Assembly: GCA_034411995.1 (NCBI GenBank)
Contig: DAOUME010000022.1
Span: forward strand, 3,965-67,964
Source: Anaerolineae bacterium
GTDB lineage: Bacteria > Chloroflexota > Anaerolineae > UBA7937 > B3-Chlor
DNA: 64,000 bases
Direction of reading: 5' to 3'
Of the stretch, positions 1 through 33,510 are shown piece by piece (the first letter of the stretch is position 1; each line of letters opens with the position of its first letter). The notes beneath the pieces were generated by a model that worked only from the letters and a program-made list of their open reading frames with translations, made no database searches and was not told the DNA's origin. The position numbers and the translations under genes are program-made.

Positions 1-8
1 CTGACCCC

Positions 9-389
9 TTGCCTCCCGTATGGGGACTAGCGAATCAACTGAAGCAAGTCTTCCTCAACATCATCATCAACGCCGTGGAAGCGATGCCTGGGGGAGGCGA
101 TCTGCACATCGATACGGATGGGGACGAAGAACGGGGCGAGGTAAGTGTGAGCTTCACCGACACGGGTGCGGGTATCCCCCTCTCGGAACTCGGCAACATC
201 TTCGATCCCTTCTTCACCTCAAAGCCCAAGGGTACGGGGCTCGGCCTTTCTATCAGCCACGGCATCATTGAGAGACACGGAGGGAGGATCGAGGTCAAGA
301 GCGAGGCCGGCAAAGGGTCCACGTTCACCGTACATCTTCCCACTCAGGCGCGGAGCCTACACGCGAACGCAATTTCTCCGGCTCGGTGA
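9..389 (+). CDS. Sensor histidine kinase, C-terminal HATPase_c fragment (5-prime end cut by window edge)
   Basis: Translation contains the G-box motifs GTGLGLSISHGIIERHGGRIEVKSEAGKGSTFTVHLP typical of the HATPase_c domain of histidine kinases; the ORF runs from the window start. Confidence 0.8.
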   Translation: MPPVWGLANQLKQVFLNIIINAVEAMPGGGDLHIDTDGDEERGEVSVSFTDTGAGIPLSELGNIFDPFFTSKPKGTGLGLSISHGIIERHGGRIEVKSEAGKGSTFTVHLPTQARSLHANAISPAR

Positions 390-597
390 GCAGCATGATC
401 CACGAGCGTTGCAGCACGAGCGCGCAGTTGTTGACAACTGCGAGAAAAGGTGATATACTACACTGGCAAGGCCCTCGCGTCTGCAACCACGTTGGTCCCT
501 TGTCTTGCCGAGGGGAGTTAGTCAGCAGGTCAGCTTCTGTGGAGATGGAATAGGGGGCTGGCCTTTTTTGCATTCGGGTAGATGACGAGGGGAGGGC

Positions 598-1203
598 ATG
601 AGAAGACAGGCCGTTTCTTCACTGTCGGGGGAGTACCTGGAAGCCATCAGCAGGAGGCTGAAAGAACTGCTTGTCGATGCCGATGCGGCGTCCGTGGTCA
701 TGGTCGACACCATGGGCCAGGTCATCGCGCAGGCCGGAGAAGTCGGCGATCTCGACATCACCACCGTCGTTTCGCTCCTGGCAGCCAGCTTCGCCACCAC
801 CTCGGAAATGTCACGTCAATTGAAGGAGGCGCGCAGGACGTTCAACCTCACCTTCCACGAAGGAGAGAGGTATGACATCTATGCGTCCAACATCGCCAGC
901 GGTCTGTTCCTGGTCCTGATTTTCGACAGGCATGCCTATGCTCCCAAGATCGGGATGGTCTGGCTGTACATCAAGCGGAGCATTCAGGACCTGCTGCGCA
1001 TCGTGGCCGAGACAGACGCCGCAAGGCCCAAGGAGACCCTGACCTCTGACTTCGCCAAGTCCCTTAGCAGCGAGCTGGATAACCTCTTCCAGGATAGAAA
1101 AGCGCCAGCGCCACCGAGTGGCAAATGGGAGGAGGAACAGATGCAGGACCTGATCCGTTGGCGAACCAGAGGCCCGCAAGGGTCCACGAAAGGGGAGGGG
1201 TAG
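598..1203 (+). CDS. Roadblock/LC7 (MglB-like) domain protein with C-terminal extension
   Basis: N-terminal about 120 aa with the Roadblock/LC7 pattern (VVMVDTMGQVIAQAGEV...); GGGAGGG RBS directly upstream of the ATG. Confidence 0.65.
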   Translation: MRRQAVSSLSGEYLEAISRRLKELLVDADAASVVMVDTMGQVIAQAGEVGDLDITTVVSLLAASFATTSEMSRQLKEARRTFNLTFHEGERYDIYASNIASGLFLVLIFDRHAYAPKIGMVWLYIKRSIQDLLRIVAETDAARPKETLTSDFAKSLSSELDNLFQDRKAPAPPSGKWEEEQMQDLIRWRTRGPQGSTKGEG

Positions 1204-1893
1204 ATGCCGCTCGAGGGAAACCTGCGGGAGCTAAGCCTGACGAACATCATCCAGTTGAACTGCAACGAAATGAACACCGCCACAGTGGTTCTGATGCACG
1301 AAGGCAGGGAGGGCATCGTCTGCTTCTCAGATGGAGCGGTCGTGCACGCTGCCGTGGAGGACCTGGTCGGTGAGGAGGCTGTCTACGAACTCCTCGCCTG
1401 GCCGGACGGGTCTTTCGTCGTGCACCAGGGACAGGCGGCGCCGGAGAGAACCATCTCAGGCAATTGGAACACCCTTCTTCTCGAGGGTATTCGCCGACTG
1501 GATGAAGGCGAGAGCGTGACGTGGGACAAGGTGGAGGCGGAACCCGCCACGGCCTCATCCGATCAGGGTGATGACATGACCAGACTCGCTCACGATCTGA
1601 AGATGATAGGCGGTGTGGAAGGGACGGTCATCATCTCCCACGACGGAGTGGTCTTCGCCAGTGACATCGATGGCAACCCTGAGAAAGAGGGTGCGGTCGC
1701 TGTGTTCGTGGGCAATGCGGCCAAGGAAGCAGGGGAAATGATGGAGCTTGCCCCGTTCGACTGGGGACTGATTACCATGGGCAAAGACAGAATGCTGGTC
1801 ATGGAACGGCCCAGGTTCTTCGTCGGCCTGGCCTTGGGCGAGAAGGCGTCACCGGCCCTGGTGAGCGCCGAGGCAGCGAAAATTCTGGGATAG
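1204..1893 (+). CDS. DUF4388 plus Roadblock/LC7 two-domain protein
   Basis: N-terminal LRELSLTNIIQLNCNE...GAVVHAA...YELLAWPDGSFVV resembles DUF4388; the C-terminal half (TVIISHDGVVFASDIDG) is Roadblock-like. The start overlaps the stop of the upstream gene (TAGATG). Confidence 0.6.
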   Translation: MPLEGNLRELSLTNIIQLNCNEMNTATVVLMHEGREGIVCFSDGAVVHAAVEDLVGEEAVYELLAWPDGSFVVHQGQAAPERTISGNWNTLLLEGIRRLDEGESVTWDKVEAEPATASSDQGDDMTRLAHDLKMIGGVEGTVIISHDGVVFASDIDGNPEKEGAVAVFVGNAAKEAGEMMELAPFDWGLITMGKDRMLVMERPRFFVGLALGEKASPALVSAEAAKILG

Positions 1894-1909
1894 AAACGGA
1901 GGGAGGCCC

Positions 1910-3070
1910 GTGGAACAACTCTTGGCTGACATCAATGCTGTGGCTGGCGTGAAGGGGTCCTTCGTATGCGACGTAGACGGCGCGATAGTGGCGCGAGCCC
2001 TACCCGCATCCCTCGATGAGACCAGAATCCTGCCTGCCGCTCGTACCATTCTGCAAACCATCGACGGATTGGAAACCACCAGACGGCGCAAGGTCCAGGA
2101 ATTGGACATACTCTTTCGCGACGCACGGATGGTCGTCAAGAACCTGCGTGTAGGCTGCCTGTACGTCGTCTGCGCGCGCAACATCAATGTCCCCCTGCTG
2201 AACTTGACGGCCAACCTGTCGGCGAAGAAGCTGGCCGAGATGCTGAAGGAGCCAGAGTCGGAAACCGCCGGCCCTCCAGCGGTAGCAGTGGCCGCGGAGA
2301 AAGCCGCAACGCTCGAGGAGGTCCCCACCGGAGACCCCTCCGTCTTGCTGCTGGCGCGGGCCCACGAGCTCATCGGCGCTGCCTCGCGGAGAGGTATCTG
2401 TCTGCGCCTCCTGGGAGGCATGGCCGTCAAGGCCACGTGTGGGAGCGCGGCCAGCATTTCCCTGCCACCGGAGGGACTCGACCTGGATCTCGCCGCCTAT
2501 GGCAAGGATCGCAAGCAACTGGAACTCGTCATGGAGGAGCTGGGTTATGATCCTCAGCGACGCTTCAACGCCCTGCACGGGCACAGACGCCTCAAGTACT
2601 TTAACGAGGAGCAGGGCCTTGGGCTGGACGTGTTCGTCGATACCTTCCACATGTGTCACCAACTGCCCTTCAGCGATCGCCTGGAGATGAGCGAGTTCAC
2701 GCTGCCCATGGCCGATCTGTTGCTGTCCAAGCTGCAGATAGTGCAGATGGGAGAGAATGACCTTAGAGACATCTACGCCATCTTATGTGATCACGAACTC
2801 GGGCACCTGGGAGACGTGGACAGCGTGGAAGCCAGCTACATCGGCTCCATCTGCAGCGATGACTGGGGCTGGTACAAGACGATCACCCTGAACCTGACCA
2901 AGAGTATAGAGTTGGTAGATGACTTCCTGGCAGACGAGGAGAGGGAGGTTTACGTATCCCGCGCCCGTCAACTCATGCAAGTCATCGAGGCGGTGCCCAA
3001 GTCGCTCCGCTGGCAGGCCAGGGCAAGGATTGGCGAGGCCAGGCGCTGGTACGACTTGCCTGAAGAGTAG
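1910..3070 (+). CDS. Roadblock-like N-terminal domain fused to an uncharacterised C-terminal domain (nucleotidyltransferase-like GG..GS..DLDL motif)
   Basis: GTG start with GGAGGGAGG RBS. The first about 120 aa are Roadblock-like (SFVCDVDGAIVARALP). The C-terminal about 250 aa contain LLGGMAVKATCGSAAS...LDLDL, a possible Pol-beta-like NTase signature; the domain assignment is uncertain. Confidence 0.45.
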   Translation: MEQLLADINAVAGVKGSFVCDVDGAIVARALPASLDETRILPAARTILQTIDGLETTRRRKVQELDILFRDARMVVKNLRVGCLYVVCARNINVPLLNLTANLSAKKLAEMLKEPESETAGPPAVAVAAEKAATLEEVPTGDPSVLLLARAHELIGAASRRGICLRLLGGMAVKATCGSAASISLPPEGLDLDLAAYGKDRKQLELVMEELGYDPQRRFNALHGHRRLKYFNEEQGLGLDVFVDTFHMCHQLPFSDRLEMSEFTLPMADLLLSKLQIVQMGENDLRDIYAILCDHELGHLGDVDSVEASYIGSICSDDWGWYKTITLNLTKSIELVDDFLADEEREVYVSRARQLMQVIEAVPKSLRWQARARIGEARRWYDLPEE

Positions 3071-3094
3071 CGACCAACTGATGGAGATGGCAAG

Positions 3095-3577
3095 ATGCAG
3101 CATCTGAATCCCCCAGACGAGCTTTTCGTCCGCATGGATGACTGCCTCGAGCGGCTCCTCGATCGGAGCCGGGCAGTCTGCGTACTACTGGCCGACATCA
3201 GCGGACAGTTGATCGTACAAAGAGGCAAGGACACCAGATTGGACACCTCGGCGCTGGCAGCCGTCACCGCCAGCAACATGGCAGCGACCGAGGAGATGGC
3301 CAGGCAGATAGGTGAGCCTGCACCTTTTTCCTACCTCTTCCACGAGGGGACCAGGCGGAGCATCTACGTCTCGGCCGTCGGCAAGACTTTTCTGCTGGTG
3401 ATCGTCTTTGACGAGATGTCACAAGTGGGGTTGGTGCGCATCTTCGCCAGGCTCGCGGTGAACGAACTGCTGGAGGTCACCACCGAGCTCGAGCCCTGGT
3501 TGGAGAAGGCAGGTTCGGTGGTGGATCGCGACTTCGGTGGGGCACTGGCCGACCAACTGGACAAAGCGTTCATCTGA
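3095..3577 (+). CDS. Roadblock/LC7 domain protein
   Basis: AVCVLLADISGQLIVQRGKD...SYLFHEGTRRSIYVSAVGKTFLLVIVFD fits the Roadblock/LC7 fold; GGAG RBS. Confidence 0.7.
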   Translation: MQHLNPPDELFVRMDDCLERLLDRSRAVCVLLADISGQLIVQRGKDTRLDTSALAAVTASNMAATEEMARQIGEPAPFSYLFHEGTRRSIYVSAVGKTFLLVIVFDEMSQVGLVRIFARLAVNELLEVTTELEPWLEKAGSVVDRDFGGALADQLDKAFI

Positions 3578-3613
3578 TCGAGAGGAACCACGGCCTTTGC
3601 CGTGGAGTGCACC

Positions 3614-4186
3614 ATGTTCGTCAACTGGAAGATGCGCGAGATCAACCTCAAAGTGGTGTACTACGGGCCGGCCCTCAGCGGCAAGACTACCAACCTGGAG
3701 TACATCTACAGCCGAACCAACCCAGAGCTCAGGGGAGAGCTCATCTCCCTCAAGACCCGCGGTGATCGCACGGTGTACTTCGATTTCATGCAGCTTGAGC
3801 TAGGGCGGATCAAGGGACTCAAGCCCAAGTTCAACCTCTACACCGTGCCCGGGCAGCCCTGCTACATAGCCAGTCGAAGACTGGTTCTCCAGGGTGCGGA
3901 CGGTGTGGTCTACGTGGCCGATTCCCAATTGAACCGACTCAAGGCCAACATAGATACGATGCGGAGCCTGCACCAGAACCTTCAGACCCTGGGGTTCGAT
4001 CCGCGCGACTTTCCCCTGGTGATGCAGTACAATAAGCGGGATCTGCCCAGCATAGCGCCCGTCGCCCTTCTGCGGATGCAGCTAGCCCACGACGGCGTCC
4101 CGCAGTTCCAATCGGTAGCCACCGAGGGCGTCGGCGTTCTGGAGACACTGAAGGCCGCCATCAACTTGGTAGTTTCCAGGCTGTAG
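3614..4186 (+). CDS. mglA: MglA-like Ras-superfamily small GTPase
   Basis: REINLKVVYYGPALSGKTTNLEYIY (P-loop), DRTVYFDF, and the NKRD G4 motif (MQYNKRDL) are typical of the MglA / conservon CvnD-like GTPase family. The ORF was trimmed to the ATG at 3614, which has a GGAG RBS. Confidence 0.75.
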   Translation: MFVNWKMREINLKVVYYGPALSGKTTNLEYIYSRTNPELRGELISLKTRGDRTVYFDFMQLELGRIKGLKPKFNLYTVPGQPCYIASRRLVLQGADGVVYVADSQLNRLKANIDTMRSLHQNLQTLGFDPRDFPLVMQYNKRDLPSIAPVALLRMQLAHDGVPQFQSVATEGVGVLETLKAAINLVVSRL

Positions 4187-4191
4187 GAAGA

Positions 4192-4572
4192 ATGCCCAAG
4201 ATACCCTTCGAAGAGACCCTGGAGAGAATCAACCGCGAAGGCAAGTTCGAGGCCTCGGTGCTCGCCACCCACGACGGCCTGCCCATCGCCACCGCACCCT
4301 CGGACTACGACACCGAGATCACGGCCGCCATGGTGGCCCTGCTGAGAAGTGCGGCACAGCAGACTCAGGTCCAGGTGGGATTGGCTGCGGTGGACGAAGT
4401 CTCCATCAGGTCCTCCGATCACATACGGCTGGTGTGCCGCTCTTTCCAGGTGGACGGCGAGGATTTCATCCTGGCGGTCGTGGTGCCCGCCGAGCAACGC
4501 TACTACAGGCAGCTCACCAACCGGGCGATCAAGGAGCTCAGAACAGCCTGGCGCGCCATGGTCCGGGCTTGA
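4192..4572 (+). CDS. Roadblock/LC7 (MglB-like) protein immediately downstream of the GTPase
   Basis: 126 aa, Roadblock pattern (ASVLATHDGLPIATAPS...); classic MglA-MglB gene pairing. Confidence 0.7.
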   Translation: MPKIPFEETLERINREGKFEASVLATHDGLPIATAPSDYDTEITAAMVALLRSAAQQTQVQVGLAAVDEVSIRSSDHIRLVCRSFQVDGEDFILAVVVPAEQRYYRQLTNRAIKELRTAWRAMVRA

Positions 4573-5187
4573 CGGCCCGCGCACTCGACGAAGTTGCGGT
4601 ATCCGGGTGCACGCTGGATATCTCTCCGGTTTCTTCGTCCGTTCGAGGCCACTGGCGGGGATCCCGAGAGCAAGCCCGGCGCCGGACCGCCAGGACCACG
4701 GACTACCAGCCCGACTCGTCGTACCTGCCCCTGGCCGCAGCCAATCACACCAGGCAGACGTGCCTTCTTTCAGTCCGATCCTTCTCGCCCATGTAGCCCT
4801 CGCTGACGATCAGCATACGATTCTGGCACTGATCGTCTTCCTCGCACCTCGCTGGTCGGTTTTCGGATCGTGCGCCCCCTCCGCAGGGAAAGCGGAGTAG
4901 TGGTTGGGCTTCCACCCTCCTGGAAGCGAAGTCCCACGCGCCGCAACGGACACCCCCTCGTCTGGAGCGACGTGGGCGCGGCTCACGCTGGTCACCCTGA
5001 CGGGGAGTCGCAGAGGCTCCCCTTCACGGCCTGACGCCGAAGATGGCCCAGGGCTACCAGTTCCCGAAAGGGAGAGGTCCCCCGGTGTTCGACCGAGGGA
5101 CCTCTGGCGATGGCGTCTAGCCTTGAGTCTGGCAGCGCACCGCCACGGCGGATGCCCACGGCGCGCCTGGCGGTCTGAGCTTTTGCG

Positions 5188-5856
5188 TCACTCCCCCACC
5201 GCCGTCTCCGTGGCTCTCGGCGTGGAGACAGCACCAGGGGTGGCGGGCTCTGCGCTCACCGTCGGTCCCGGTGTATCGGTGGGTGTGGGCGTGGGTTTCT
5301 CGGGCGGCTCGCTGATCAGCCGCTCCAGATCCCCGATGGCGGAGGAGGCCACCAGATAGACTTCGCTGCCCCCTTCTCTTTGTACGTAACTGGAGTAACC
5401 AGCGGGGTTCTTGTTCCCGACCAGGAGTACCTGGCTGCCACCGTCTGCCAGGCCAACCTCCACGCGCAGGGCCGGTTCGGCGAGACCGAAGGCCTCCAGA
5501 TCCACATCCTCCCCCTCCACGACTCTCGTGGACTGCATCTGCGACAGGCTCCCCAGGAGCCCCTCAATCCGCGTCGCATCCGCCTCGGCCTCGAGAGGCG
5601 CGGTCAAACGCCACATCCCCTCCGCAAGCCTCCGGACCATCACCGATTCGCTGCTCCTCTGATCGGTCACCTCCAGCGTTACGGCGTCTTCCACTTCGAA
5701 AGAAAACACGGGTACTCTACCCTCTTCCTCGGGCGCCGTCTCCTGGCCGCCCCTCATCTCCAGCACGAAGACCAGTGCCGCCAGGACCACGAAGACGGCC
5801 ACCACTATGATCGTAGTTCGCTGGTGTAATCTCATCGCTGTTACCTTCGCCTCCAC
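5188..5856 (-). CDS. DUF4340 domain protein (accessory component of GldG-type ABC systems)
   Basis: N-terminal TM helix, central DUF4340-like region and a Pro/Thr-rich C-terminal tail; co-oriented with and overlapping the GldG-like gene. The start could be the internal Met (MRLHQ...). Confidence 0.55.
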   Translation of the reverse strand: MEAKVTAMRLHQRTTIIVVAVFVVLAALVFVLEMRGGQETAPEEEGRVPVFSFEVEDAVTLEVTDQRSSESVMVRRLAEGMWRLTAPLEAEADATRIEGLLGSLSQMQSTRVVEGEDVDLEAFGLAEPALRVEVGLADGGSQVLLVGNKNPAGYSSYVQREGGSEVYLVASSAIGDLERLISEPPEKPTPTPTDTPGPTVSAEPATPGAVSTPRATETAVGE

Positions 5857-7373
5857 CAGACCACGGCGCCGACCAGCAGGATTGCCGCCGGCAAGAAGAT
5901 GACGCTGGAGTACTGCAAGAAACGAGCTTGCCCAGGGGACAGGACCAGGACGCGAGACACGGGCGGCTTCGGCCTTATGGAAATCAGCTCCTCTTCCTCA
6001 GCCAACCAGTTCACGCTATTGAGGAAGAGATCGCTGTTTCCTCCCAGCGTCAGGCTGGAGTTGCCGGCAAAATCCGAGTCTCCAAAGACCACCAGGCGCG
6101 TCCCCACGGTCGCCTCTCCTTCGCCCTGAGCCTCCACGCCCATGGCCATGGACAGCGGTCCCGCGGTGTCTGCGCCAACGTCGTACCGGGCTTCCTGCCG
6201 GCGCAGCGCCTCAAAGTCGGTTTCTCCCCAGCTCCCCTCACTGGATTCCACGAGGGCGAGCGCCGTCACCCCCTCCGGCTGCTCCACCGTGCGGGTAATC
6301 GACCTCGCCGTACTCAGCACCACGCCGGGCAAGTCCCGTGTGATTTCGCTGAACCGGAAGCTATCGACCACGGGCGACAGCGGATCGACGCCGAAAAGCC
6401 CTCGCTCAGGATCTATGACCACGTCATCCTCGTACTCCACACCCCACTCGCCCAGCACCTCGCTCAGGGCCGGTTCCTGCCCAGGTTCTTGCATGATCAG
6501 TGCCTTTCCCCCCTGCTGCAAGTAAGCGCTGATAGCCTCGCTCTCCTGCTCCAGCAAGGGAGTGCTGGGCGCCGCCACCACCAGGACAGATGCATCGACG
6601 GGAACGGTGCTGCTGATCGCCAGATTCAGCGTATTGACGACGTAGTTATCTCGCTCCAGGGCATCCCGGATCTCACTGTAGTCAGACTGATCGTACCCAC
6701 CCGGGTCGCGCTCACCGTGTCCGGTGAGGAAGTAGACGACCTTCTGCGAGTCTCGCGATACCTTCAGAAGGGCCCCGGTGATCTCCTGCTCGTCCACCGT
6801 CAAGCTGTCCTGTCTTCTCCCCGCGCACTCGAAGACGATCGTGCCGTATGACGTGATACCATACTGTTGAGCCACAAAGGGCTGCACGTCGGGATCCACG
6901 ACCTCATACGTGATCTTGTCCGTATGGTACACATACTCGGCCAGCAGGTCATCCAGTTCCTGCTGCGCGGGATCGCCCTGCACGAAGAAGGCCGTCACCT
7001 TCACAGGCTCAGTGAGATCAGACAAGATCTGCATCGTCTCAGGCGACAGCGTATAATCCTGAAACTCCGTCAGATCCAGACGTCGATGATGTCGATCCCC
7101 CAGGAAATTGAGGAGAACCAGTATGCCCAGGAAAGCTACGATGGCGATGCCAATGTTGGAGCCATACCTGGCCGCACGCCCAGTGATGGCAGACCTCAAG
7201 GCGTCCGGCCTGGCCGCCACGGACGCCACCAGCAGGATGGCACCCAGCCCCAACAACGCCTCCACGCGCAGGTCCAGCTCTTGGGTCAGTAGATACAGAA
7301 TCACCGCCAAGGTCAGAATAGCCAGCCCGGCGATGCCACCAGGAATAGCCAGGCGTTTCCACCAACCGCGCAT
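5841..7373 (-). CDS. GldG-like ABC transporter auxiliary/substrate-binding component
   Basis: 510 aa with N- and C-terminal TM segments and a large extracytoplasmic domain; lies in the conserved GldA-GldF-GldG order. Confidence 0.6.
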   Translation of the reverse strand: MRGWWKRLAIPGGIAGLAILTLAVILYLLTQELDLRVEALLGLGAILLVASVAARPDALRSAITGRAARYGSNIGIAIVAFLGILVLLNFLGDRHHRRLDLTEFQDYTLSPETMQILSDLTEPVKVTAFFVQGDPAQQELDDLLAEYVYHTDKITYEVVDPDVQPFVAQQYGITSYGTIVFECAGRRQDSLTVDEQEITGALLKVSRDSQKVVYFLTGHGERDPGGYDQSDYSEIRDALERDNYVVNTLNLAISSTVPVDASVLVVAAPSTPLLEQESEAISAYLQQGGKALIMQEPGQEPALSEVLGEWGVEYEDDVVIDPERGLFGVDPLSPVVDSFRFSEITRDLPGVVLSTARSITRTVEQPEGVTALALVESSEGSWGETDFEALRRQEARYDVGADTAGPLSMAMGVEAQGEGEATVGTRLVVFGDSDFAGNSSLTLGGNSDLFLNSVNWLAEEEELISIRPKPPVSRVLVLSPGQARFLQYSSVIFLPAAILLVGAVVWWRRR

Positions 7374-8084
7374 CTACCTCCACCTCCTCAACTGCAACAT
7401 CTGTACCGACAAGAAGAGAAACCCAGCGGTAGCGCTGAGGTAGAAGATGACGTCTTTGGTATCCACGATACCCCTGAGGAAATCGAAGTAGTGAGCGGAC
7501 ATCGAAAGGTAAGCCACGACATCACCCACAGGAGGGCCAAAGAGGCTTCCTGCGACGTCCACCAGCCAGAGGATGAGCATCGCTCCAAAGGCCAGCAAGG
7601 CTGCCACTACCTGATTTCGACTCAAGGAAGACGTAAACAGCCCAATAGACAAGAACGTCGCCCCCAGCAACGCCAGACCCACATATCCGCCGATGATGGC
7701 ACCTCGATCGGGATTACCGAGGCTGATCATGAGGAGCGGGTAGTATAGAGTCAGGGCCAGCATGACCCCGTAGACACCCAGACCGGCCAGGAACTTGCCC
7801 AGGACCACCTCCCAGTCCCTGACGGGCAGGGTGAGCAACAACTCGATGGTGCCTGACCTCTGTTCTTCGGCCAACAGTCGCATGGTCAGCGCGGGGGTCA
7901 CGAACAGCAAGGTGACCGCCATGTTGGCAAAGACTCCCCTCAGCGAGGCCTCTCGGGTATAGTAGACGATCAGCGAGAAGAAGAACCCCATGATCGCCAG
8001 AAAGGCAGCGATCACCACGTAGGCGATGGGGGATGCAAAATAGGCGTGCAGCTCTTTGCGGGCGATGACGACCATGTTCCTCAT
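7374..8084 (-). CDS. ABC-2 family permease (GldF-like)
   Basis: 236 aa, six predicted TM helices; stop/start abutting the upstream ATPase gene. Confidence 0.7.
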   Translation of the reverse strand: MRNMVVIARKELHAYFASPIAYVVIAAFLAIMGFFFSLIVYYTREASLRGVFANMAVTLLFVTPALTMRLLAEEQRSGTIELLLTLPVRDWEVVLGKFLAGLGVYGVMLALTLYYPLLMISLGNPDRGAIIGGYVGLALLGATFLSIGLFTSSLSRNQVVAALLAFGAMLILWLVDVAGSLFGPPVGDVVAYLSMSAHYFDFLRGIVDTKDVIFYLSATAGFLFLSVQMLQLRRWR

Positions 8085-9026
8085 TTAGGCAGCCTCCTCT
8101 CCCTTGTGCGCTTCCTCTTCCGTGGTCAACCTCAGGAAGATGTCTTCCAGCGTGAGCCCCAGCGGGCGCAGCTCCAGCAAGCCCCAACCCTGCTGAACCA
8201 CCAGAGAGGAGATCTCGGCACGGGGGTCCAGTCCGGCGCCGCACGCGACCACGTACTGGCCGTCTCCGCTGGTCTCCACGCCCGTCACACCCTCTATGGC
8301 GCCCACGAGTCTCACCACGTCTGGAGATGGATCCCGCACCTGAACCAGGACACGCCGAGCCTGCTCGAGCTTCGATCCCAACTCCTCGGGAGTGCCCTCA
8401 GCGGCTATCTCCCCCTCGTTGATGATCACCAACCGATTGCAGACCTCGCTGGCCTCGGGAAGGATGTGGGTACTGAGAATGACAGTGTGACTTCCTCCCA
8501 GACCCTTGATCAGTTGCCGCACCTCGCGGATCTGTCTGGGATCCAACCCGATGGTTGGCTCATCGAGGATGAGCACCTGGGGATCGTGGACCAGAGCCTG
8601 GGCCAACCCCACTCGCTGGCGATAGCCCTTGGAAAGTCTGCCGATCAAGGCGCCTGCGAAGTCGGTGAGATCGCACGTATCCATGATCTCCTCGATGCGC
8701 CGGCGACCATCGCTCACGTGGCGAATGCTGGCCACGAAGCTCAGGTACGAGGACACCGTCATCTCCGGGTAGAGAGGGACCATCTCGGGCATGTATCCGA
8801 TGCGCTTCCTCACCTCGAGAGAATCCTCCCAGACGTCGAACCCGGCGACGCGGGCCGTTCCAGCGCTGGGAGGCATGAAGGCAGTGAGAATGCGCATCGT
8901 GGTGGTCTTGCCCGCCGCGTTGGGACCCAGGAAAGCCAGGATCTCGCCGTCCTCGACTCGAAAACTCACGTCCTTGATCGCTGCGAAGCTCCCATAGTAC
9001 TTGGTGAGGCCCTCAACCTCTATCAT
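8085..9026 (-). CDS. ABC transporter ATP-binding protein (GldA-like)
   Basis: Walker A GPNAAGKTT, signature LSKGYRQRVGLAQAL, Walker B LILDEPT. The start was moved to the internal ATG (MIEVEGLTKYYG), which has a GGAGGA RBS. Confidence 0.8.
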   Translation of the reverse strand: MIEVEGLTKYYGSFAAIKDVSFRVEDGEILAFLGPNAAGKTTTMRILTAFMPPSAGTARVAGFDVWEDSLEVRKRIGYMPEMVPLYPEMTVSSYLSFVASIRHVSDGRRRIEEIMDTCDLTDFAGALIGRLSKGYRQRVGLAQALVHDPQVLILDEPTIGLDPRQIREVRQLIKGLGGSHTVILSTHILPEASEVCNRLVIINEGEIAAEGTPEELGSKLEQARRVLVQVRDPSPDVVRLVGAIEGVTGVETSGDGQYVVACGAGLDPRAEISSLVVQQGWGLLELRPLGLTLEDIFLRLTTEEEAHKGEEAA

Positions 9027-9262
9027 CTTTATCCTCCACTGGTGCTGGCCAGTCCTCAAATAGAGTGAAAGCACAAGGCTCGGCTCTCCGTCGCGTCACC
9101 ATGTGCTTCCCACCATGCGTTCTGTCAGCGCCGATATTACGGCACAAGCGGCACAGTGTCAAGTCACCAACAACTCAGGGTACCTCCGTCCTTCGGGGCG
9201 ATGGTCGAAATAGTATGCCCACCGCGGTGCGGGGCATCGGCCGCTCCGGGTCATCAGGGATC

Positions 9263-13158: not shown

Positions 13159-14532
13159 CTAGACCGCGGTTGACGTGCTCTCGACGCACAGGGCACCCTG
13201 GTTCTTCAGGTACAGGGGGCACCCACCACCACACAGCGGCAGCTCATCGCAGGAACGACATTTCTCCATCACCCAGTCCCTGTTCCTGAGACTCACCGCC
13301 TCCTCATGATTCCAGATGGAACCCCAGTCGTCTCGAAGTATGTTCCCCAGGCTCGAATAGTAGCTCTGGCAGGGAATGACGTCCCCGTTGGGCTCGACGC
13401 ACATGTTGTACCTGGCGGCCGTACAGAACTTGGCTCCCAACTCCAGATCCACCGGATGGAACTCACAATACTGCGTCGGCGTGTACCAGATGAGCCTCAT
13501 CCCCTCAGCGATCGCCTTGTCGCGCACCCTGACCATGAGACCTTCCAGCTCTGTTTCCAGGATGCCGATGCCGCTGGAGGGCCCCTTCCCAGAATAGATG
13601 AGACTGTTGCAGGCAAAGGTCTCGATCCCCAGCTCCTTCAGGAACTCTATGGTCCGCTCGAACTGCGGAGCGTTCAGAGTGGTCAGCGTGCTATTGGTGA
13701 TCGTATAGACGTCCGTGGCGACCGCGTTCTTGATGCCCTGCACCGTCTGCTTCCAGACCTCTGCCCCCACCATCCGGTTGTGGATCGCCTCGTCGTGAGA
13801 CTCCAGCGTGATCTGAATGTGGTCCAACCCCGCGTCCACCAGCTCTTCAAGGTACCCTTCGTCCGCCAGCTTGATGCCGTTGGTTAGCAGACCAGCGACC
13901 AGCCCCACGTCCTCGGCGTGCCGAACCAGCTCGACCAGGTCGGGGTACAGGGTCGCCTCTCCCCCGGTGAAGACCACGTGCGGTATGCCCAGGTCCCACA
14001 GCTTGTCGATAACCTGTTTCCACTCCGCCGTGGTCAGGCTCTCCATATCCCTGGGGCGGCCAACGTAGCAGTGCCCGCAGTCAGCGTTGCACCTGTAGGT
14101 GAGCGCCAGGTCCATACGGTAGGGCGCCGAGACAGGTGTGTTGAAGGGTTCGATCCTCTGTACGTCCAGATACGAGATGGGGCACACGTTGTCGGTGGTA
14201 GCCAGGGTGAAGATGGTGTCTTTCAGGTGCTCGTAATCCTCGCGCAGCCTGGCCGTCGACGCTTTGTAACGCCTCTTCAGCTCTCTGACCGCCTCATCTG
14301 TGTCTTTGCCCTCGACGAGCAGCTTGGCATGCTCGGTGGCCGTCTTGTTGAGGTGCAAGACCTTCGCGGCGTTGACCACCAGGATACCCTCGCCGTTATC
14401 CTCCACCCGCAAATGGATCCGGAATCGCTGGTCAGCACCATCCGGAGTCATGTAATGGAACATGCCCTTCTCCAAGGGTTCGGGTGCCGTAGGAAAGAAG
14501 GTGTCCTTCAAAGACCGCCAAACGCTCATCAC
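13159..14532 (-). CDS. Radical SAM / SPASM-domain enzyme with N-terminal PqqD-like RRE domain (putative peptide-modifying maturase)
   Basis: CNADCGHC (CxxxCxxC) after an about 115 aa N-terminal region resembling PqqD/RRE (VLHLNKTATEHAKLLVEGKDTDEAVRELKRRY). C-terminal Cys-rich SPASM region (CVEPNGDVIPCQ...CRSCDELPLCGGGCP). Confidence 0.7.
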   Translation of the reverse strand: MMSVWRSLKDTFFPTAPEPLEKGMFHYMTPDGADQRFRIHLRVEDNGEGILVVNAAKVLHLNKTATEHAKLLVEGKDTDEAVRELKRRYKASTARLREDYEHLKDTIFTLATTDNVCPISYLDVQRIEPFNTPVSAPYRMDLALTYRCNADCGHCYVGRPRDMESLTTAEWKQVIDKLWDLGIPHVVFTGGEATLYPDLVELVRHAEDVGLVAGLLTNGIKLADEGYLEELVDAGLDHIQITLESHDEAIHNRMVGAEVWKQTVQGIKNAVATDVYTITNSTLTTLNAPQFERTIEFLKELGIETFACNSLIYSGKGPSSGIGILETELEGLMVRVRDKAIAEGMRLIWYTPTQYCEFHPVDLELGAKFCTAARYNMCVEPNGDVIPCQSYYSSLGNILRDDWGSIWNHEEAVSLRNRDWVMEKCRSCDELPLCGGGCPLYLKNQGALCVESTSTAV

Positions 14533-31851: not shown

Positions 31852-33510
31852 TTGCGGCATGACCAGACCGGCCTCCTCTCGCAGAGCGCAAGGCCGGGCA
31901 ATGCAGCGACCGGGGGCATCAGGGGAAATACATTGACAACCATCTCGCAGGGTGAACTGAACAACCTGAGCGTGCTCATCGTGGAAGATGCGCGGCAGGC
32001 TCTGGAGATGCTACTACGGTATCAGCAGAAGTACCGCGACGACATCAATTTCGCCGCGAACAAAGGAGGTTTGCTGATTGACATTGGTAGTCGTCTCGGC
32101 GACACCGGTGTTGTACGGCAGGGCATGGCGTCGATTGATGAGTTGCTGCCGAGGGCTGGTGAGCAATCTCGTCCCCTTCTCCTCTACAATCTAGGCAACG
32201 GGTATATGGCGTTGCACTCCATTGCTCGGCGCCAACCTGGCTTCTCATTCGACCCCGATGACACTAGACTCCGTGAAGCCAAGCGCTGTTACCGCGGCGT
32301 GCTGGGAGGATCAGAGCGTCTTGATGCCAACCAACGCGCTGGACTCCGAGTGAACTATGGCAACTGTCTCGCGAGTCTTGGCCGTTCCCTCGAGGCAATC
32401 CACCAATACGAGACGGCTCTCCGCCACGCGCCCAATCACCCCATGGCATGGGGGAACCTGGGAGTTGAGTTGGAGCGCTTCGCGTTCGTTGGTCAAGACC
32501 CGGCCATCCTGCGGGCTGCGAATGAAGGGCTACTCAGGGCTCTTGCAGATGATAGCCTTGAGCAAATGGGAGAGGATTCGGCGCGCCCCGGTTTCGAAAA
32601 GGCGCAGCAACGTATTGCACGGCTGTTGAGCCAGCTTGTAGAAGACGCGGGACTGGGCGGGCCCGAGGTGCCCCAGGCCGCGACACCGTATCATCAAGCG
32701 TACAGCGAGTTCTGTGTGAAGCATGAACTCTTCCTGAATTTCTGTCTGAAGGGCCGCCCATGCCAGCGGGTGGCTGAAGATGCTGTCAGTTTGTCAATTA
32801 CCACGCCACTTGATGACGAGACGACCTACCCTCGGCTCGCACGAGTGGTCAACGAGATCAAAGAACGATACGCGGTCGCCCGCCTACTGCTGTTCGAAGC
32901 CTGCAATCCGCCTCTTGACACTCAGCCATATGACGAGATGACCTACTACGCGGACAATCTCGACTACGCCGTATACGGGATTGGTCCCACCAAGCTGAAG
33001 CTGGCCTTTGAAAGTGCCTACAACATCTTGGACAAGCTGGCCTTCTTCGTCAACGACTATCTCGATCTGGGGATCAAGGTGCGGCTGGTGAGTTTTCAGG
33101 GGCTATGGAAGGAGCGCAAGACGGCCGCTCTCAGGCCTGCGATTGTCGAACGTGGTAATTGGCACCTGTATGGCCTGTACGACCTCTCCAAAGACCTAGC
33201 ACCGACAGGCTACCTTGAGCACCTGCGGCTCACCCGAGACTATCTAACACACCGCTATCTGGTGCTCCATGTTGAGGGGCTAGATTGGCTAACGTCCGCC
33301 GATGGTCCTGGGTACCACTCGGGCTACCGCCAGTTGCTGACCAACACGATCGAATTGATGCGACTCGTCCGCAGTGCGGTCATCTACCTCATCGCCTTCA
33401 TCGACCGAGAGGAGCGCGCGAAACGCCAAGACGGAGAGGGCTCTATTGCACCCATGCGTGTCCCGCCTTATAGGCCTTACCGGTTGGGTCCGCAGGATGC
33501 TCCAATGTAG
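31852..33510 (+). CDS. TPR-repeat protein with C-terminal HEPN-like domain (candidate defence/abortive-infection effector; cassette B)
   Basis: TPR-like helical repeats in the N-terminal half (LLYNLGNGYMALH..., YETALRHAPNHPMAWGNLG). C-terminal region with Rx4H motif (LRLTRDYLTHRYLVLH) in a context resembling LA2681/Abi-type HEPN domains. Confidence 0.5.
   Translation: MRHDQTGLLSQSARPGNAATGGIRGNTLTTISQGELNNLSVLIVEDARQALEMLLRYQQKYRDDINFAANKGGLLIDIGSRLGDTGVVRQGMASIDELLPRAGEQSRPLLLYNLGNGYMALHSIARRQPGFSFDPDDTRLREAKRCYRGVLGGSERLDANQRAGLRVNYGNCLASLGRSLEAIHQYETALRHAPNHPMAWGNLGVELERFAFVGQDPAILRAANEGLLRALADDSLEQMGEDSARPGFEKAQQRIARLLSQLVEDAGLGGPEVPQAATPYHQAYSEFCVKHELFLNFCLKGRPCQRVAEDAVSLSITTPLDDETTYPRLARVVNEIKERYAVARLLLFEACNPPLDTQPYDEMTYYADNLDYAVYGIGPTKLKLAFESAYNILDKLAFFVNDYLDLGIKVRLVSFQGLWKERKTAALRPAIVERGNWHLYGLYDLSKDLAPTGYLEHLRLTRDYLTHRYLVLHVEGLDWLTSADGPGYHSGYRQLLTNTIELMRLVRSAVIYLIAFIDREERAKRQDGEGSIAPMRVPPYRPYRLGPQDAPM

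Follow-up and report, generated by a model that had tools for sequence, protein, structure and literature searches.

What would a nucleotidyltransferase (NTase) fold do when it is joined to a Roadblock domain and encoded among the genes of a small-GTPase switch? The question is raised by a cluster of seven genes in the first 4.6 kb of a 64,000-nucleotide (nt) stretch of DNA from an uncultured member of the Anaerolineae (Chloroflexota), here called the window. An original prediction, made from the sequence, had described this cluster as conservon-like, with five Roadblock/LC7 paralogs and one MglA-type GTPase. It had singled out a fusion protein (1910–3070, 386 amino acids (aa)) whose C-terminal domain carries an NTase-like pattern. 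All seven open reading frames (ORFs) were found on the + strand where, and in the order in which, it had placed them. We find that the locus is a Group-1 MglA/MglB switch module in which Roadblock accessory proteins are unusually numerous, and that the C-terminal domain of the fusion has a predicted NTase fold. That the module is an MglA/MglB system we hold with high confidence. We incline, with some reserve, to the reading that it is a composite, in which a paired PATAN/NTase accessory gives the MglA/MglB module a nucleotide-dependent input.

Sequence searches say little about the fusion. Its Pfam matches are weak, with 14.9 bits for Roadblock and 17.6 bits for PF14907 (NTP_transf_5). A sequence search of the PDB with the fusion and with a profile of its family returned nothing for the C-terminal domain and marginal matches for the Roadblock domain, and no NCBIfam model covers the C-terminal domain. 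The full-length AlphaFold2 model (predicted local distance difference test, pLDDT, 86) has two domains. The Roadblock domain (1910–2254, + strand, residues 1–115) is followed by a disordered linker of variable length (2255–2329, + strand, residues 116–140), where pLDDT is below 50 at residues 115–140 and the alignment is gapped and rich in Pro and Ala. The rest is a Pol-beta-type NTase-fold domain with a C-terminal helical subdomain (2330–3070, + strand, residues 141–386), which when modelled on its own reaches a pLDDT of 93.8 and a predicted template modelling (pTM) score of 0.91.

The predicted model has the alpha-beta-alpha-beta core of the Pol-beta-type NTase superfamily. Fold comparison of the domain gave figures of 12.1 for ANT(2'')-Ia, 11.8 for MenT1, 11.2 for a fungal NTase-like protein, 11.0 for LnuA, 10.4 for JHP933, 10.2 for TglT/MenT3, 8.8 for MenT4, 8.7 for Cid1, 8.5 for Pol beta and 8.4 for Rel, and its identity to every solved structure is 19% or less. 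The motif of the superfamily is present in full, from hG[GS] through [DE]h[DE]h (strand 2) to the third carboxylate (neighbouring strand). L168-G169-G170 sits at the beta1/alpha2 junction (strand 165–168, helix 170–176), D191-L-D193-L lies on strand 191–196 and D240 on the adjacent strand 237–243; H250, K364 and R371 complete the motif residues. The predicted fold, with the GG and DLDL elements where they are expected, bears out the NTase-like assignment, and the "GS" element of the pattern first proposed falls outside the conserved motif. A defence or toxin–antitoxin reading of the MenT/AbiE kind was considered and dropped: there was no PADLOC match, and the neighbours are Roadblock, PATAN and GTPase genes.

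The domain does not fall into a named family. Stand-alone relatives score 18–30 bits against PF14907, and all matches, that of the window protein included, lie under the 31.2-bit gathering cut-off. They are partial, covering profile positions ~50–150 and thus the NTase core only, and a few relatives carry a precomputed PF14907 match in the database. The family has an invariant signature of H250, Q276, W319-G320, K364, W368, R371, G375 and W380-Y381. Because its matches are partial and sub-threshold and its identity to solved structures is so low, we place this NTase family, on its sequences, as an unclassified sister group of PF14907. The domain search that had been proposed for the C-terminal region of 1910–3070 yielded a PF14907 match below the cut-off, and it took fold comparison to show the NTase fold.

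Is the fusion a real protein? The C-terminal domain also exists as a stand-alone protein (P0115–P0120), as it would if an assembly or gene-calling error had joined two genes. Against this, the fusion has matches in 653 clusters formed at 90% identity, and among the 120 best listed almost every one spans the whole query. These relatives come from JGI, ENA, NCBI and Logan assemblies, the architecture recurs in more than 30 independent loci, the reading frame is unbroken and the linker is conserved. We reject an artefact with near certainty. The few named relatives come from Anaerolineae or Chloroflexi metagenome-assembled genomes (MAGs), and when one genome per species was scanned, the 47 loci recovered were confined to Chloroflexota (Anaerolineae, Thermoflexus, Chloroflexia and Ca. 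Aquidulcis). The architecture is therefore not rare. It belongs to a large and common Chloroflexota family whose annotation is generic only ("roadblock/LC7 domain-containing protein", "hypothetical protein" or, at JGI, "predicted regulator of Ras-like GTPase activity").

The NTase domain is more widespread than the fusion. A profile search of 1.84 billion representatives returned 3,205 clusters at E ≤ 1e-3 and 794 at E ≤ 1e-30, so that the family, which spans Bacteria and Archaea, comprises no fewer than 3,205 clusters (50% identity). Among the best 150 profile matches ~25 are of the fusion type, and most others are stand-alone proteins of ~250 aa. Stand-alone NTases also occur in Ktedonobacteraceae, Bathyarchaeia and Thermoplasmata, all annotated as hypothetical, and genomes that bear the fusion usually carry stand-alone paralogs too. 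Some fusion orthologs (P0071, P0074, P0077 and P0081, of 466–478 aa) have an extra conserved C-terminal extension of ~80 aa with a precomputed PF26309 assignment; it had no match in our local Pfam copy at E ≤ 0.001.

We counted the catalytic positions in 280 sequences, 145 stand-alone representatives and 135 fusions. In the stand-alone NTases they are nearly fixed (G169 in 144, D191 in 143, D193 in 143, D240 in 141 with Glu in 3 others), and the NTase family appears to be ancestrally active. The fusions are relaxed, with G169 in 117, D191 in 84 plus 10 Glu and D193 in 104 plus 20 Glu. Every catalytic residue is intact in the window protein, in its seven-gene clade and in L018 (46% identity). 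The corresponding positions read GS/E/N/H in the clade whose first MglB carries a receiver (REC) domain, DP/Q/E, NS/Q/D and similar in the clades with a REC-Ras GTPase, and DS/Q/E/E in direct PATAN–NTase fusions. H250, K364, W368 and R371 are invariant in 280 of 280 sequences.

These counts bear on whether the fold is an enzyme at all. It is possible, although we think it rather unlikely, that the NTase fold is a non-catalytic pseudoenzyme in the window clade too, and that it links the MglA cycle to nucleoside triphosphate (NTP) levels or to a partner protein while transferring nothing. Most fusion clades other than that of the window, and the direct PATAN–NTase fusions, have lost G169/G170, D191 and often D193 or D240, while the invariance of H250, K364, W368 and R371 in all 280 argues for a shared function independent of the metal-binding carboxylates. 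The complete sites of the window clade and L018 speak the other way, as do the nearly invariant stand-alone representatives, since such retention is the pattern expected from purifying selection on catalysis. On our reading, the fused forms have in common a role that depends on binding a nucleotide or ligand but not on catalysis, and the window clade probably still catalyses nucleotidyl transfer. Whether the NTase domain of this clade is catalytically active we nevertheless judge to be evenly balanced.

What does the fusion accompany? The GTPase (3614–4186, + strand, 190 aa) matches the solved structures of Myxococcus xanthus MglA (E = 1.1e-66) and Thermus MglA (1.7e-61), and is 54% identical to the former over 188 ungapped residues; Pfam gave only a weak Arf-like match to the ORF at 3602/3614–4186. 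Since its homologs are 190 aa long, we take ATG 3614 as the start, not GTG 3602. Group-1 MglA proteins are distinguished by an intrinsic Arg in G2 and by a TVPGQ G3 motif in place of DxxGQ (PMC4316618). The window GTPase keeps the P-loop and T26, T27, R53, T78 and Q82 (M. xanthus MglA numbering). The Arg at the R53 position lies within DRT, and G3 reads LYTVPGQ with T78 and Q82 conserved. By these residues the GTPase is assigned as a true Group-1 MglA, in agreement with the MglA-type call made earlier, and it is the single MglA match in the window.

Two of the Roadblock proteins are matched by MglB structures. MglB paralog 1 (598–1203, + strand, 201 aa; PF03259, 26.6 bits) consists of a Roadblock domain and a C-terminal extension and matches M. 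xanthus MglB 6izw_B with E = 4e-15, C-terminal helix included. MglB paralog 2 (3095–3577, + strand, 160 aa; PF03259, 40.8 bits) matches M. xanthus MglB 6h5b_B with E = 4e-21, and of the two paralogs it more nearly resembles the characterised MglB GTPase-activating protein (GAP). Both score 62–65 bits against the NCBIfam Thermus MglB model (62 for paralog 1), under its 200-bit equivalog cut-off. Judged by homology, both are true MglB paralogs. Of the two small residues at the MglA interface of M. xanthus MglB, A64 is aligned with Ala in both paralogs but G68 with Glu, as read off alignments that assume PDB numbering to be native.

The presence of a kinase, Roadblock proteins and a GTPase had suggested a conservon. 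Positions 1–389 (+ strand; ORF 3–389) encode the 3′ end of a probably soluble GAF-GAF-HisKA-HATPase_c histidine kinase, of which only the ATPase domain lies within the window (HATPase_c, PF02518, E = 5.8e-28). The full kinase, seen at L001 (contig CAZHFM010000005.1, assembly GCA_964531685.1), has 603 aa and, by precomputed Pfam matches, a GAF-GAF-HisKA-HATPase_c architecture with no HAMP domain among them. In a CvnA–D-like cluster the kinase-like sensor would work directly with the Roadblock and GTPase proteins. The kinase does lie immediately upstream and is syntenic in 11 loci, and the cluster encodes Roadblock and GTPase proteins and no response regulator. However, none of the seven products matches DUF742 (CvnC) at E ≤ 0.1, an absence that had been raised as a point to check. 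CvnD is a Group-2 MglA that lacks the G2 Arg, and CvnA is membrane-bound with HAMP (PMC4316618); the window has instead a Group-1 MglA that carries both the intrinsic Arg and TVPGQ, two MglB paralogs, and an apparently soluble GAF-GAF HisKA kinase with a promoter boundary on its 3′ side. Membership of the conservon family is largely refuted, the likeness is one of analogy only, and we consider a conservon-type mode of action very unlikely.

The gene between MglB paralog 1 and the fusion (1204–1893, + strand) encodes an N-terminal PATAN domain (DUF4388, residues ~4–101; PF14332, 76.9 bits) and a C-terminal half (residues ~119–229) that is Roadblock-like. Its Pfam Roadblock match is weak (14.9 bits). 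Aligned with HHalign, this half gave 91.4% probability against the alignment of the 126-aa Roadblock protein and 92.5% against the N-terminal domain of the fusion. Because it aligns with Roadblock profiles, the count of five Roadblock domains to one MglA is upheld. PATAN genes near MglA/MglB have been noted before, in Makarova 2006 as cited in PMC4316618, and Synechocystis PATAN-REC proteins are reported to bind the type IV pilus motor.

The arrangement is conserved. With neighbours in all loci typed by phmmer, the order kinase, MglB1, PATAN-Roadblock, Roadblock-NTase, MglB2, MglA, Roadblock was found in 11 Anaerolineae MAG loci (L007–L016 and L019, of which L013 is cut at its ends), whose fusions are 65–85% identical to that of the window. 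Chance is an insufficient explanation for the arrangement, since the same order is seen in these 11 independent loci. The PATAN-Roadblock gene lies directly 5′ of the fusion gene in every fusion locus with upstream sequence. The GTPase nearby varies: several clades have MglA and MglB, and others have a REC-Ras GTPase instead of MglA (L002, L024, L031, L032, L034, L037–L039, L042, L047 and L053), preceded by a small DUF7990 protein. A GTPase of one kind or the other is close by in all fusion loci with enough flank except L021. L003 and L018 have no kinase, and their MglB1 carries an N-terminal REC domain, which points to two-component input at MglB1.

We made some further observations on these loci. 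In other Chloroflexota, at L002 (9242–10455) and L054 (9118–10298), the fusion or PATAN–NTase gene is followed by a 90-aa DUF7990 protein and then by the REC-Ras (Rup-like) GTPase. DUF7990 accompanies REC-Ras in every such locus and is found at L017 as well, beside MglB and MglA. Four loci (L041 8004–13726, L045, L048 and L005 7024–11224) encode an NTase paralog of ~250 aa and, nearby, one of ~298 aa, with intact catalytic motifs. Also present in some of them are a 112-aa protein that resembles the PATAN protein's C-terminal half and a protein of 286 aa in which an N-terminus similar to the fusion's Roadblock domain precedes a V4R domain, a type that binds small molecules. These sets look like a paralogous, unfused version of the system. 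In some related genomes a second cluster adjoins the seven-gene cluster (L014 11100–15825, − strand; L009 11127–14953); at L014 this second cluster comprises two more MglA paralogs along with three genes of the Roadblock/MglB-like kind. Several MglA systems are thus present in these Anaerolineales.

Direct fusions of the PATAN and NTase domains bear on what the two proteins do together. P0155 and P0165 join PATAN to the NTase fold with no Roadblock domain. The P0155 locus is syntenic with L002, with GatB on its 5′ side and DUF7990, REC-Ras and an amino-acid kinase on its 3′ side, and the one gene stands in for the PATAN-Roadblock, Roadblock and Roadblock-NTase genes of an L002-type locus. Because a single polypeptide replaces the pair (a Rosetta-stone argument), this suggests that PATAN and NTase-fold domains act together, and that related Roadblock domains dimerise the PATAN-Roadblock and Roadblock-NTase proteins where these are separate. 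We think it fairly probable that the two proteins work as a pair.

These observations lead us to a model of how the module might work. MglB1 and MglB2 would form the GAP platform for MglA, possibly as a heterodimer. An MglB dimer binds one MglA asymmetrically, a mode of binding that the heterodimer idea matches. The PATAN-Roadblock and Roadblock-NTase proteins would pair through their related Roadblock domains and so bring PATAN, a protein-interaction domain, to the NTase fold. That fold would bind an NTP through the family-invariant H250, K364, R371, W319 and W368. In the window clade it would probably also transfer a nucleotidyl group, because the full hGG/DxD/D site is retained. The most plausible target would be one of the switch's own proteins, whether MglA, an MglB or the PATAN partner, so that the NTase would overlay the GTPase cycle with a level of control that is covalent or senses nucleotides. 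Sensory input may come from the kinase or, in sister clades, from the REC domain fused to MglB1.

Several points weigh against this composite of switch module and PATAN/NTase accessory. We infer both the PATAN/NTase heterodimerisation and any target of the NTase. The nearest structures modify small molecules (ANT(2''), LnuA) or tRNA (MenT toxins), not proteins. The archaeal stand-alone NTases (Bathyarchaeia, Thermoplasmata-like) have no GTPase context, being solitary genes in unrelated neighbourhoods. In most other fusion clades neither the hG[GS] motif nor the first Asp survives, while H250, K364 and R371 stay, so that a function common to all fusions cannot require catalysis; the intact site of the window clade could in part reflect shared ancestry. 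Both MglB paralogs have Glu where M. xanthus MglB has G68, a change that may alter the MglA interface. Genes for type IV pilus or gliding machinery were not identified in the parts of the window examined by look-ups and a Pfam batch.

The structural neighbours also raise the prospect of a substrate outside the GTPase cycle, whether a small molecule (as for ANT/Lnu enzymes) or an RNA 3′ end (as for MenT), with the Roadblock domain localising or regulating the enzyme. The top matches are aminoglycoside and lincosamide NTases and the tRNA-modifying MenT1, MenT3 and MenT4, and stand-alone members occur with no GTPase context in Archaea and Chloroflexota. One metagenomic protein (P0263, 570 aa) joins the NTase fold to a phosphoribosyltransferase domain (PF00156, 54.6 bits), which hints at a nucleotide- or phosphoribosyl pyrophosphate (PRPP)-related ligand for the family. 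Set beside these is the GTPase found next to nearly every fusion, and we regard a substrate outside the cycle as improbable. Because the nearest structures act on small molecules or tRNA, we also put low weight on a target within the module, and hold it doubtful that the NTase acts on one of the module's own proteins.

The most specific form of the proposal is that the Roadblock-NTase, brought to the MglA/MglB platform by its Roadblock domain as a heterodimer with the PATAN-Roadblock protein, AMPylates or GMPylates MglA or one of its regulators, and has decayed to a nucleotide-sensing pseudoenzyme in sister clades. We consider this unlikely. If true, it would be an endogenous bacterial counterpart of DrrA-type GTPase AMPylation, and would place a second, covalent switch on top of the Ras-like GTPase cycle.

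How the genes are expressed could be read in part from the spacers. The tight coupling that had been noted holds for the six genes downstream of the kinase, with a TAGATG junction at 1201–1206 and gaps of 0, 16, 24, 36 and 5 nt. The last of them (4192–4572, + strand) is a short generic Roadblock/LC7 protein of 126 aa (PF03259, 39.2 bits), conserved as the final gene of the cluster. A terminator-like hairpin with a T-rich tail at 4613–4640 (+ strand), found by consensus scan only, follows at the operon end, and the gene beyond it is oppositely oriented. A spacer of 208 nt separates the kinase from mglB1. It holds a sigma-70-type promoter-like site, TTGACA-17-TATACT with an extended TG (431–459, + strand), which matches the consensus at 11/12 positions; TTGAC and GTGATATACT are kept in 10/10 aligned loci, while the flanks vary. 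Because the spacer holds this conserved, near-consensus promoter, the tightly coupled unit probably comprises six genes, with its own promoter and a candidate attenuator, and leaves out the kinase, which is syntenic with them and probably transcribed separately. The single operon once proposed for the whole cluster is thus retained for six genes but not for the kinase.

Downstream of the promoter a conserved leader (472–569, + strand) contains a possible helix and a terminator-like hairpin. The possible helix pairs CCCUCG at 472–477 with CGAGGG at 509–514 (90% of cells paired, 10 loci). The hairpin pairs GGUCAGC at 528–534 with GCUGGCC at 557–563 (97% of cells paired, 10 loci) and is followed by U6 at 564–569. 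No compensatory double changes were seen in either helix among the 10 loci, and the leader had no Rfam match, whether the gathering thresholds or E ≤ 1 were applied. Another candidate for the upstream helix (columns 7–12 with 46–51), with only 53% of cells paired, was dropped for CCCUCG/CGAGGG. CCCUC could also pair with the ribosome-binding site GGGGAGGG. With its promoter (431–597), this leader, which precedes the start codon, may act as an attenuator or as a riboswitch-like element.

Elsewhere in the window, a convergent set of genes directly 3′ of the cluster (5188–9074, − strand) encodes DUF4340, GldG-like ABC_transp_aux, ABC-2 permease and ABC ATPase proteins. It resembles the GldA/F/G transporter needed for Flavobacterium gliding. 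Its adjacency to the MglA operon may be coincidental; other loci (for example L014) have different neighbours. A protein with tetratricopeptide repeats (TPR) and an LA2681-like HEPN domain (31852–33510, + strand; 157 bits) seems unrelated to the MglA operon. So does a PqqD-radical SAM-SPASM maturase (13159–14532, − strand), which suggests a locus for a ribosomally synthesised and post-translationally modified peptide (RiPP).

What is new here can be set against what is known. MglA/MglB is a model system for bacterial Ras-like polarity switches. To our knowledge, the regulators known for MglA (MglB, MglC, RomR/RomX and RomY) belong to the Roadblock or REC proteins and bring no enzymatic domain to add to the GTPase itself. 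Earlier work covers MglA/MglB modules, systems with one MglA to two MglB, and PATAN neighbours (PMC4316618). Nothing relevant emerged from literature searches that paired Roadblock or PATAN with nucleotidyltransferase or that concerned PF14907, in keeping with the original prediction that an NTase is an undescribed partner of Roadblock domains. In the literature found, the Roadblock-NTase and PATAN-NTase fusions, the obligate pairing of these fusions with a PATAN-Roadblock protein, and the division of clades into those whose catalytic sites look active and those in which the sites have degenerated are likewise undescribed. A Roadblock domain joined to a catalytically intact NTase fold suggests a type of input that is unreported for these switches, which could be covalent nucleotidylylation or direct sensing of NTPs. 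The link holds across Chloroflexota and two classes of small GTPase (MglA and REC-Ras). For a large NTase family that has no name and is now annotated as hypothetical, the finding also supplies an initial functional context. The intact and degenerate clades provide a natural, built-in comparison.

Compared with the MglA/MglB of M. xanthus and T. thermophilus (Group-1 MglA, Wuichet & Sogaard-Andersen 2014), the window module is alike in its 54%-identical GTPase with the Arg, TVPGQ and Gln, and in its adjacent MglB-type Roadblock proteins, one with a C-terminal helix. A subset of Group-1 systems has two coupled MglB genes and occasional PATAN neighbours (PMC4316618). The window locus differs in having five Roadblock domains in one operon, in adding the PATAN-Roadblock and Roadblock-NTase proteins, and in adjoining a GAF-GAF kinase; no homologs of RomR, RomX, RomY or MglC were detected among the genes examined. 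Like the conservons CvnA–CvnD, it encodes a histidine-kinase-type protein next to Roadblock proteins and a small GTPase and contains no response regulator, and differs from them in the lack of CvnC, the group of its GTPase and the apparently soluble GAF-GAF architecture of its kinase. The NTase family stands apart from PF14907 and from the ANT(2'')/LnuA/JHP933/MenT (DUF1814, AbiEii-like) branch of the Pol-beta superfamily by its sub-threshold scores and its own signature, and fusion to Roadblock or PATAN is undescribed for PF14907. With PATAN regulators such as PatA and the Synechocystis PATAN-REC proteins the locus shares an N-terminal PATAN/DUF4388 domain, fused here to a Roadblock-like domain and not to REC, and in relatives directly to the NTase fold. 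In Legionella, DrrA/SidM, which AMPylates the small GTPase Rab1, also couples an NTase-fold catalytic domain to a small-GTPase-binding module, and offers a precedent for covalent nucleotidylylation of a Ras-like GTPase.

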